Positions 1,195-2,251 of a stretch of 31,674 nucleotides of DNA are shown here, piece after piece (position 1 is the first letter of the stretch; each line of letters starts with the position of its first letter). The notes beneath the pieces were generated by a model. The model saw only the letters and a program-made list of their open reading frames with translations. It was not told where the DNA came from and ran no database searches. Source of the stretch: Rozella allomycis CSF55 (lineage: Eukaryota); contig KE560904.1 in assembly GCA_000442015.1 (NCBI GenBank), positions 62,001-93,674 of the forward strand, given 5' to 3'. The position numbers were made by a program, and so were the translations under genes.

Positions 1195-2251
1195 ATGAGT
1201 GAAACTAATATTGAAAAAGTTGTTATAGTAGGTTCTGGTCCAGCTGGTAAAAAATCATAACTATTTCAATAAGCACACACTGCTGCTATTTATACTGGAA
1301 GAGCCCAACTTAATCCTGTTATGTTTGAAGGTTTTATGGCTGGAAATGTCGCTGCTGGTGGCCAGCTTACAACAACCACTGAAGTGGAGAATTTTCCTGG
1401 TTTTCCTGAAGGAATCATGGGACCAGAGTTAATGGAAAGAATGAGAAAGCAAGTATTTTTTTATTTTTATTTTAATTAGTCAATTAAATGTGGCACAAGA
1501 ATATTCACAGAAACCGTCAATAGTGTGGATTTGAGTCTAAGACCATTTGTTGTGAAAACAGATGAAAGATCTATTAAGACATGGTCTATTATTGTTGCTA
1601 CAGGTAATTAAAATTTTGCAGGGATAAAAGGCGCTACTGCCAAAAGAGACCCTATCCCTGGAACAGGAGACAATGAACTCTGGAATCGAGGTGTTAGCGC
1701 CTGTGCAGTGTGCGATGGAGCAGCTCCGATTTTCCGCAATAAGCCTATCTTTGTTATTGGTGGAGGTGATTCGGCATGTGAAGAAGCTCACTTTCTCACA
1801 AGATATGCATCGAAGGTTTACATCGTTCATCGAAGAGACGAGCTTAGAGCGTCCAAAATTATGCAACTCAGAGTTCAAGAACACGAAAAAATTGAAATCC
1901 GTAATTTTTAAATTAAATTTTTATCAAGTTTATTCCCATAAAGTGACAAGAGCGATTGGTGAGGATTTGCTCAGAGCTGTTGAGGTTGAAGATCTCAAAA
2001 CTGGGAAAAAACGTGAAATGCCAGCTAATGGATTATTTTTTGCCATTGGACACAAACCAAACACTGATTTTCTTAATGGACAACTCCCAACTGATGACCA
2101 AGGTTATTTGATCTCTTTGAAAGGTTCCGAAACAACAATAGAAGGTGTATTTGTTGCTGGTGATTGCAAGGACAAAAAATATCGACAAGCCATCACTGCA
2201 GGTAATAAATTCTATTTTATGAATACATTAGCTGGAAGTGGTTGCATGGCC
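1195..2251 (+). CDS. TRR1: Thioredoxin reductase, low-MW fungal/bacterial type; 3' end cut by the N join at 2252
   Basis: Spliced translation gives [32 protein letters not shown], redox motif [29 protein letters not shown] and YRQAITAAGSGCMA. Introns at 1247-1273, 1453-1479, 1604-1630, 1901-1928 and 2202-2231. Confidence 0.96.

Follow-up and report, generated by a model that had tools for sequence, protein, structure and literature searches.

We examined the introns in a 31.7-kb stretch of Rozella allomycis CSF55 DNA (31,674 nucleotides (nt) of contig KE560904.1, positions 62,001 to 93,674, referred to here as the window). In the 64 short introns that we curated, the acceptor is always the first AG whose G lies at nt 26 or beyond, counted from the donor, while AGs lying closer are tolerated; of the internal signals, the most pronounced is an A at nt 23, counted in the same way (A23). 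This donor-anchored signal points to a ruler that measures from the donor to the branch site, not from the donor to the acceptor. We therefore favour, with a probability of roughly 55%, a reading in which the short introns are of the ordinary U2-type GT-AG kind, as small as the spliceosome can handle, with a branch site placed by its distance from the donor and the first AG after it as acceptor. A first-pass annotation, made from the letters of the same stretch, had noted that good YAG acceptors are skipped and that AAG acceptors are frequent, and had suggested a ruler-like choice of the 3' splice site as a possible reason. Its observation of positional acceptors and common AAG is confirmed, and its interpretation is partly supported.

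The intron set was assembled from all segments of 14-45 nt that begin with GTA, end with AG and connect two open frames. These candidates were chained by hand into gene models open from end to end, and two Rab6 and two ACBD introns were added from reading of the sequence, which gave a final set of 64 short introns in 19 genes (span 744..31278, both strands). A Viterbi gene finder with self-trained codon scores split genes and chose wrong acceptors, so it was dropped in favour of the manual chains. Splice sites were assigned throughout by reading frame and homology. Every gene chain is open end to end after intron removal, and in 46/64 introns the acceptor is the sole frame-compatible AG at 13-45 nt (frame-unique acceptors below). 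Nine junctions, five in TrxR, three in the tyrosyl-tRNA synthetase gene (TyrRS) and one in PTPA, show no indel within 8 residues when compared with 25-40 homologs. The three introns of a homolog-less gene (31375-30470, minus strand), two of them with GAG acceptors, are of low confidence; without this gene the set counts 61 introns and both GAG acceptors are gone. One metatranscriptome (X1), compared with positions 1-20000 of the window, yielded six fragments of 19-50 nt, among them no splice joint.

The lengths of the short introns are confined to five values: 26 nt (14 introns), 27 nt (18), 28 nt (17), 29 nt (8) and 30 nt (7). All of them, as well as a 77-nt intron of RPL36, are of the GT..AG type, which is partly a selection criterion. 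The donor is GTA in 63 introns and GTG in one, with A at +4 in 47/64 and no further information beyond; the full GTAAGT donor occurs in a single short intron. Other non-GTA donors were possibly missed by the GTA-based scan, the GTG donor having come from homology reading. When the -3 base was tabulated on the curated set, T was found in 35 introns, A in 24, C in 3 and G in 2, so that the claim of frequent AAG acceptors stands (24/64, and 13/46 in the frame-unique subset). Relative to the composition of the intron interior (A.376, C.114, G.108, T.402), A at -3 is as expected, T shows some excess, and both C and G are underrepresented (chi-square p=0.025). A pyrimidine tract is not seen, the pyrimidine fraction at -12..-4 being 0.49 for used and 0.50 for bypassed AGs. 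None of the branch motifs looked for is enriched in the 64 introns relative to shuffled sequences: YTRAY occurs in 18 introns vs 20.2, CTRAY in 2 vs 5.0, CTAAY in 2 vs 4.0 and TAAYTT in 9 vs 7.2. A conserved branch motif that would fully explain the position of the acceptor, which could have overturned the first-pass proposal, is accordingly not found.

The introns contain 50 internal AGs, distributed over 36 of the 64, and none is used. Splicing to them would cause a frameshift in 33 cases and an in-frame stop in 6, whereas 11 are in frame and open. Their -3 bases (A 21, T 21, G 5, C 3) do not differ from those of the used AGs when pyrimidines are compared with purines (Fisher p=0.26). The rate of internal AGs is flat from nt 4 to nt 25, at 0.022-0.047 per position vs 0.041 expected from composition, and falls to zero from nt 26. 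The bypassed AGs are thus notable for being tolerated, not for being enriched.

The rule of taking the first AG that ends at nt 26 or later predicts the acceptor in 64/64 introns, including 46/46 of the frame-unique ones, whereas a threshold of 25 is right in 60/64 and one of 24 in 58/64. The predictor put forward originally, the first AG beyond about 24 nt, was therefore close, and becomes fully predictive only from nt 26. On the other hand, this rule is nearly a restatement of the 26-30 nt length range, since only 2.2 rule-breaking AGs are expected over the 54 positions at which they could occur. Something further must cap the length at 30 nt, because a bare first-AG rule predicts a long tail (about 0.04 AG per position) and none is seen. 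The sequence at the acceptor still carries some information: at -3, C and G are depleted, and a G follows 28/64 used AGs vs 2/50 bypassed ones. Indeed, a leave-one-out sequence matrix recovers 53/64 acceptors vs 37 expected by random choice, and 18/23 where an upstream competitor exists, although most of this performance derives from the composition of the exon right after the site. The ruler-like rule thus holds insofar as position predicts every short acceptor, used and bypassed AGs do not differ in pyrimidine vs purine at -3 or in upstream pyrimidines, and no branch motif accompanies it; it is not supported as a complete replacement of sequence-based 3' recognition, and the long RPL36 intron described below breaks it.

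The A at nt 23 is present in 45/64 introns (p=1.7e-7), namely in 14/14, 11/18, 11/17, 6/8 and 3/7 of the introns of 26, 27, 28, 29 and 30 nt, respectively. Among the introns of at least 27 nt it is found in 31/50 (p=6e-4), while positions anchored at the 3' end reach at most 23/50; the best z-score is 5.4 for 5'-anchored and 3.1 for 3'-anchored positions. Enrichment of A is absent from nt 15-22 (z at most 0.24). In 60/64 introns one or more As are present from nt 23 to L-3, where L is the intron length, vs 42.2 expected (z=5.06), which is the best of a 48-cell grid. The distance from A23 to the acceptor ranges from 3 to 7 nt across the length classes. Since A23 was not used in curation, this signal supports the intron set itself.

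The intron that first drew attention is the third of the TrxR gene, whose five introns are as follows.

1247..1273, plus strand: TrxR intron 1, 27 nt, AAG acceptor, no indel against 25 homologs.
1453..1479, plus strand: TrxR intron 2, 27 nt, TAG acceptor, junction free of indels.
1604..1630, plus strand: TrxR intron 3 (focal), 27 nt, AAG acceptor, with a proximal CAG ending at 1621 (nt 18) and the A at nt 23 at base 1626.
1901..1928, plus strand: TrxR intron 4, 28 nt, AAG acceptor, junction free of indels.
2202..2231, plus strand: TrxR intron 5, 30 nt, TAG acceptor, junction free of indels.

The focal intron begins with GTAATT; TTTTGCAG ends at nt 18 (1621) and GATAAAAG at 1630. Frame alone cannot choose between the two, because these AGs are 9 nt apart and both are in frame. 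Homology backs the 27-nt form. The flanking exons abut in the numbering of solved structures (7p9d, 110/112; 1vdc, 120/122; 4a5l, 117/119), with one split-codon Gly between them, and the motif at the junction is found without insertion in the homologs P0122, P0124, P0138 and P0142. A hidden Markov model (HMM) of 25 homologs scores the 27-nt isoform at 458.7 bits and the 18-nt isoform at 450.3 bits, the latter carrying a 3-residue insertion against the model. Structure numbering, homologs and HMM therefore agree with the first-pass view that the CAG at nt 18 is bypassed and the AAG at nt 27 is probably the one used.

The other introns that bear on the choice of the acceptor are these.

2860..2885, minus strand: YHM2-like carrier, 26 nt; TAG at nt 19 bypassed (frameshift), TAG at 26 used.
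3007..3036, minus strand: YHM2-like, 30 nt; AAG at 16 and CAG at 20 bypassed (frameshift), acceptor frame-unique.
8237..8265, plus strand: HAUS8-like, 29 nt; TAG at 15 bypassed, CAG at 29 used, frame-unique.
10736..10761, minus strand: TyrRS, 26 nt, AAG acceptor; AAG at 16 bypassed, gapless against P0272.
12767..12793, minus strand: ACBD, 27 nt; TAG at 20 bypassed (the short form has an in-frame stop), TAG at 27 used.
12804..12830, minus strand: ACBD, taken as 27 nt (TAG); an in-frame AAG at nt 24 is an alternative.
14724..14751, plus strand: PTPA, 28 nt, AAG acceptor, junction free of indels.
17226..17253, plus strand: mtIF2, taken as 28 nt; AGs at 19, 22 and 25 are also in frame.
18642..18667, plus strand: INO1, 26 nt; TAG at 16 and AAG at 19 bypassed, TAG at 26 used, frame-unique.
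20631..20659, plus strand: RPL36 short intron, 29 nt; TAG at 18 and AAG at 24 bypassed (frameshift).
21832..21861, plus strand: EEP/CCR4-like, 30 nt; AAG at 25 bypassed (frameshift; open codons downstream 117 vs 25).
22657..22682, minus strand: Rab6, 26 nt; TAG at 22 bypassed (frameshift).
22519..22544, minus strand: Rab6, 26 nt; GTG donor, the sole non-GTA donor among the 64.

The early TAGs said to be skipped in YHM2, HAUS8-like, ACBD and INO1 are all bypassed, at correct coordinates. Likewise, the eight AAG acceptors listed in the same annotation (1273, 1630, 1928, 8491, 10736, 14751, UBTD at 23691 and DNAAF1 at 29906) were all recovered, and at five of them (1273, 1630, 1928, 10736 and 14751) the junction is free of indels relative to homologs. 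The tightest bypasses proven by frame are those of the AAG at nt 24 in the RPL36 short intron, which places the threshold above 24, and of the AAG at nt 25 in the EEP/CCR4-like intron, which places it above 25. Two boundaries depend on our own assumptions. The ACBD intron 12804..12830 is presumed to be 27 nt long from the usual ACBP spacing. For the mtIF2 intron, the downstream exon aligns to bacterial IF2 and a homology search with the upstream exon gave no match; the choice of nt 28 among nt 19, 22, 25 and 28 is our assumption, made from a motif.

In the homolog-less gene, the introns 31252-31278 and 30599-30625 (minus strand) have a GAG acceptor at nt 27 that comes directly after a TAG or AAG at 25. 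They would be the clearest cases of position prevailing over sequence, if real. For 30599-30625, an overlapping alternative, 30579-30605, also of 27 nt and with a TAG acceptor, fits equally well.

The exception to the 26-nt rule, which is therefore not universal, is the following intron.

20419..20495, plus strand: RPL36 long intron, 77 nt, GTAAGT donor; flanking exons contiguous in the numbering of solved structures.

Its exons abut in four solved eL36 chains (8esq, 8jiv, 7olc and 4v7e). The AGs at nt 59 and 65 are unused and would give in-frame stops. A CTAAT lies at nt 66-70, with its second A (20487) 8 nt from the 3' end, and the acceptor is the first AG past it. This intron indicates that a sequence-defined branch combined with the use of the first AG after the branch operates in the same genome. 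The first AG after the branch would fit the long RPL36 intron if CTAAT is the branch and 64/64 short introns if A23 is.

These data can be put together in the following way. In the short introns the branch A would be placed at a set distance from the 5' splice site, usually near nt 23 but now and then at nt 24-27, without a base-pairing consensus, and exon ligation would take place at the first AG at least 3 nt past it, that is, at an AG ending at nt 26-30. In canonical splicing, AGs upstream of or right beside the branch site are normally bypassed. Similarly, AGs before nt 26 would be upstream of the putative branch A, on it or too near to it, and since they would be invisible they could evolve neutrally, hence their neutral density. 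The preference for a pyrimidine at -3 would have relaxed because there is no room for a pyrimidine tract, decaying to A or T and rarely C or G, so that AAG became common. An intron of the RPL36 type would use the consensus branch CTAAT and then the first AG, one principle thus spanning both classes. A23 would then be the branch point, and the size limit would be steric.

Several points weigh against this reading. We infer the role of A23 as the branch point from sequence alone, and its flanks show no U2-pairing pattern in the 64 introns. Moreover, 19/64 introns have no A at nt 23 and 4/64 have none from nt 23 to L-3. The 3-nt gap between branch A and junction is shorter than the documented gaps that we met in the literature. 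The listed signals define an intron incompletely, since 17/64 exonic GTA sites satisfy the length rule as well. The set comes from one 31.7-kb window, is author-curated and was drawn mostly from GTA donors; 18/64 introns offer another in-frame AG besides the modelled acceptor, and homology settled three of them. The exonic decoys just mentioned were sense-strand GTA sites in 40 internal exons (8415 nt), and 6 of the 17 that meet the 26-30 rule also carry an A at nt 23. The A+T content of real introns (mean 0.75) is richer than that of most decoys (0.43-0.81).

A true ruler from donor to acceptor, which would start at the 5' splice site, count off about 26 nt and take the next AG, leaving branch position and 3' sequence unselective, possibly after loss or divergence of U2AF/SF1, would explain the 64/64 score of the nt-26 rule, the failure of the -3 base and upstream pyrimidines to separate used from bypassed AGs, and the missing branch motif. 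Yet this score barely tests it, given the 2.2 rule-breaking AGs expected. Such a ruler sets no upper bound, although the short introns stop at 30 nt, it is broken by the 77-nt RPL36 intron, and it leaves the donor-anchored A, invariant in the 26-nt introns, unexplained; we consider it distinctly improbable. The same A could be interpreted differently if a degenerate branch lay upstream, at about nt 12-20, and the acceptor were chosen by minimal and maximal branch-to-AG distances, A23 being then an extended 3' splice-site contact or a contact of a second-step factor. The very short 3-nt gap otherwise proposed, the overall enrichment of A at -4 (36/64, z=3.1) and the YTRAY-like pentamers seen at nt 11-20 in some introns speak in its favour. 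Nevertheless, YTRAY is no more frequent than in shuffles, nt 15-22 are devoid of A enrichment, and in the introns of at least 27 nt A is enriched at a fixed distance from the donor (31/50 at nt 23) and not from the acceptor (22/50 at -4), which makes an upstream branch unlikely in our opinion.

It could also be that part of the pattern is an artefact of the gene models, the proximal AGs being used appreciably, their products removed by nonsense-mediated decay and some boundaries being wrong. The boundaries are indeed modelled from frame and homology alone, 11/50 bypassed AGs are in frame and open, 15 introns have in-frame downstream alternatives, the gene 31375-30470 contributes low-confidence introns including the two with GAG acceptors, and in-frame stops are present in 24/25 introns of a length divisible by three (3n), as expected if decay polices mis-splicing or retention. 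Against this, 39/50 bypassed AGs would wreck the reading frame of conserved proteins, nine junctions are exact relative to homologs, A23 is strong though it played no part in curation, and the public TyrRS annotation has the same three introns; this explanation seems to us very unlikely. Returning to the donor-measured branch site, a bolder version can be offered only tentatively: the Rozella spliceosome would count about 23 nt to the branch A and ligate at an AG that may lie as close as 3 nt further on, which would be the shortest spacing described, this ruler having replaced recognition of the U2AF/SF1 type for nearly all introns, while a minority of long consensus introns such as that of RPL36 survive and foreshadow the microsporidian condition.

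The introns of 27 or 30 nt deserve a separate remark. If retained, they would introduce an in-frame stop in 24/25 cases, while shuffled sequences give 18.8 +/- 2.0 and reach 24 in 4/1000. The pattern resembles selection for the clearance of unspliced transcripts by the nonsense-mediated route, a proposal already made for Paramecium. Introns of 3n length are not depleted (25/64).

The window itself is gene-dense, with a G+C content of about 35% and the standard genetic code. Compared with known proteins, the PTPA exon matches chytrid and other opisthokont sequences at about 50% identity, and the TyrRS exon is 99% identical to the deposited tyrosyl-tRNA synthetase of R. allomycis CSF55. The spliced TyrRS model, with three introns, equals this deposited protein (P0272) at 461/463 residues without gaps, and the deposited record has the same three introns as the model. 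Since the match is so close, the window is from R. allomycis or a near-identical strain. A ciliate or dicyemid source, considered early on, was rejected in view of the genetic code, the PTPA matches and then the TyrRS match. The two residues of TyrRS (9665-11328, minus strand) that differ from the deposited partial protein, K/E and E/K, suggest another haplotype, strain or assembly version.

Some other features were recorded along the window. It contains 14 N characters; the two that were inspected (2252 and 5951), of which one falls in the final exon of TrxR, are lone bases in an otherwise uninterrupted sequence and look like ambiguous base calls, not scaffold gaps. A tRNA-Gly with anticodon GCC (13026-13096, plus strand, 59.4 bits with Rfam) is flanked by the PAF-AH-like and ACBD genes, and the Rfam scan of the window gave nothing besides it. 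This tRNA overlaps the end of a minus-strand open reading frame of 138 aa (13032-13445), which is unannotated and without a match in Pfam. The HAUS8-like gene carries a perfect 237-nt direct repeat (8466-8702 and 8835-9071, plus strand, spacing 369 nt) that copies one exon and an identical 26-nt intron (8669-8694 = 9038-9063). It represents either a recent duplication within the gene or an assembly artefact, and one copy of the intron was counted. Intron candidates discarded as spurious or unsupported were 6693-6728, 9622-9654, 12494-12517, 12815-12841, 14348-14373 and 20262-20292 on the plus strand, and 27104-27077, 26997-26970, 24873-24844, 20990-20966, 6022-5994 and 3843-3815 on the minus strand.

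How a spliceosome finds its sites in ultra-short introns with scarce sequence signals is the question raised by these findings. In model organisms the branch is found by its sequence together with U2AF/SF1, next to a pyrimidine tract. According to the first-AG scanning model, AGs upstream of the branch or too near to it are passed over in favour of the first one downstream that is accessible. Rozella differs from these organisms in that its branch is seemingly found by distance from the donor, while the first-AG step fits both of its intron classes if A23 is the branch. There is also a practical consequence: gene callers that accept only YAG acceptors, or only introns above 30 nt, will predict wrong gene models in such genomes.

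Rozella adjoins the Microsporidia, whose few introns went the opposite way, with strong motifs. In the short introns of Encephalitozoon cuniculi, a strong GTAAGT donor is combined with a CTAAYTT branch motif (PMC2483917, PMC6349667). This combination is not found in the short introns of the window, where GTAAGT occurs in 1/64 and TAAYTT hardly exceeds its shuffled frequency (9/64 vs 7.2), and only the long RPL36 intron resembles the microsporidian type. Two putative S23 introns of R. allomycis were described as about 30 nt long and without the microsporidian 5' splice-site and branch motifs (PMC6349667), and the intron density of Rozella as 2.5 per kb (PMC8476143). Our literature search, whose scope left out the Rozella genome paper, returned in the portions available no account of Rozella intron length or of a 3' splice-site rule beyond the remark in PMC6349667.

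Among ciliates, the introns of Paramecium average 25 nt (PMC8997360). Introns of 3n length are disfavoured in most ciliates (PMC13685798), unlike in Rozella, where they make up 25/64, though 24/25 of them carry in-frame stops. In Stentor coeruleus, a putative branch A occupies nt 10 of 15-nt and nt 11 of 16-nt introns, and a short gap between branch and AG has been proposed with steric arguments (PMC9505925). As in Stentor, the candidate branch A of Rozella appears to be set by position, a few nt from the AG; the Stentor A keeps its distance from the 3' end, while that of Rozella keeps its distance from the 5' end, with a 3' gap of 3 to 7 nt.

Closer parallels are found in animals. Myxobolid myxozoans and Dicyema japonicum have median intron lengths of about 22-27 bp and a GTa 5' splice site (Hadjez et al. 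2026, PMC13644364). Their branch site lacks a clear consensus, with weak A residues located further from the AG in longer introns, and the 3' splice site of D. japonicum and non-myxobolid myxozoans is little more than an AG (PMC13644364). The short introns, GTA donor, bare AG and donor-anchored A of Rozella are all similar to what the main text of that paper describes. The differences are that Rozella belongs to the Rozellomycota and has its A at one sharp position, nt 23, without exception among the 26-nt introns; relative to the same main text, what is quantified here, from one window, is a hard 26-nt floor, a neutral AG density before this floor and a canonical long intron alongside. Irimia and Roy (2008, PMC2483917) grouped Paramecium, the Bigelowiella nucleomorph and dicyemids into a class with tiny introns, GT(A) donors, no branch signature and intron-rich reduced genomes, and the Rozella window shares its very short introns, GT(A) donor and lack of a branch-point signature. 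Collectively, the narrow length range, the GTA donor, the bare AG, the missing branch consensus and an A-to-AG distance that grows with intron length make Rozella an addition to the known class of ultra-short, weak-signal introns, so that it would join ciliates, a nucleomorph, dicyemids and myxozoans as a fungus-related example.

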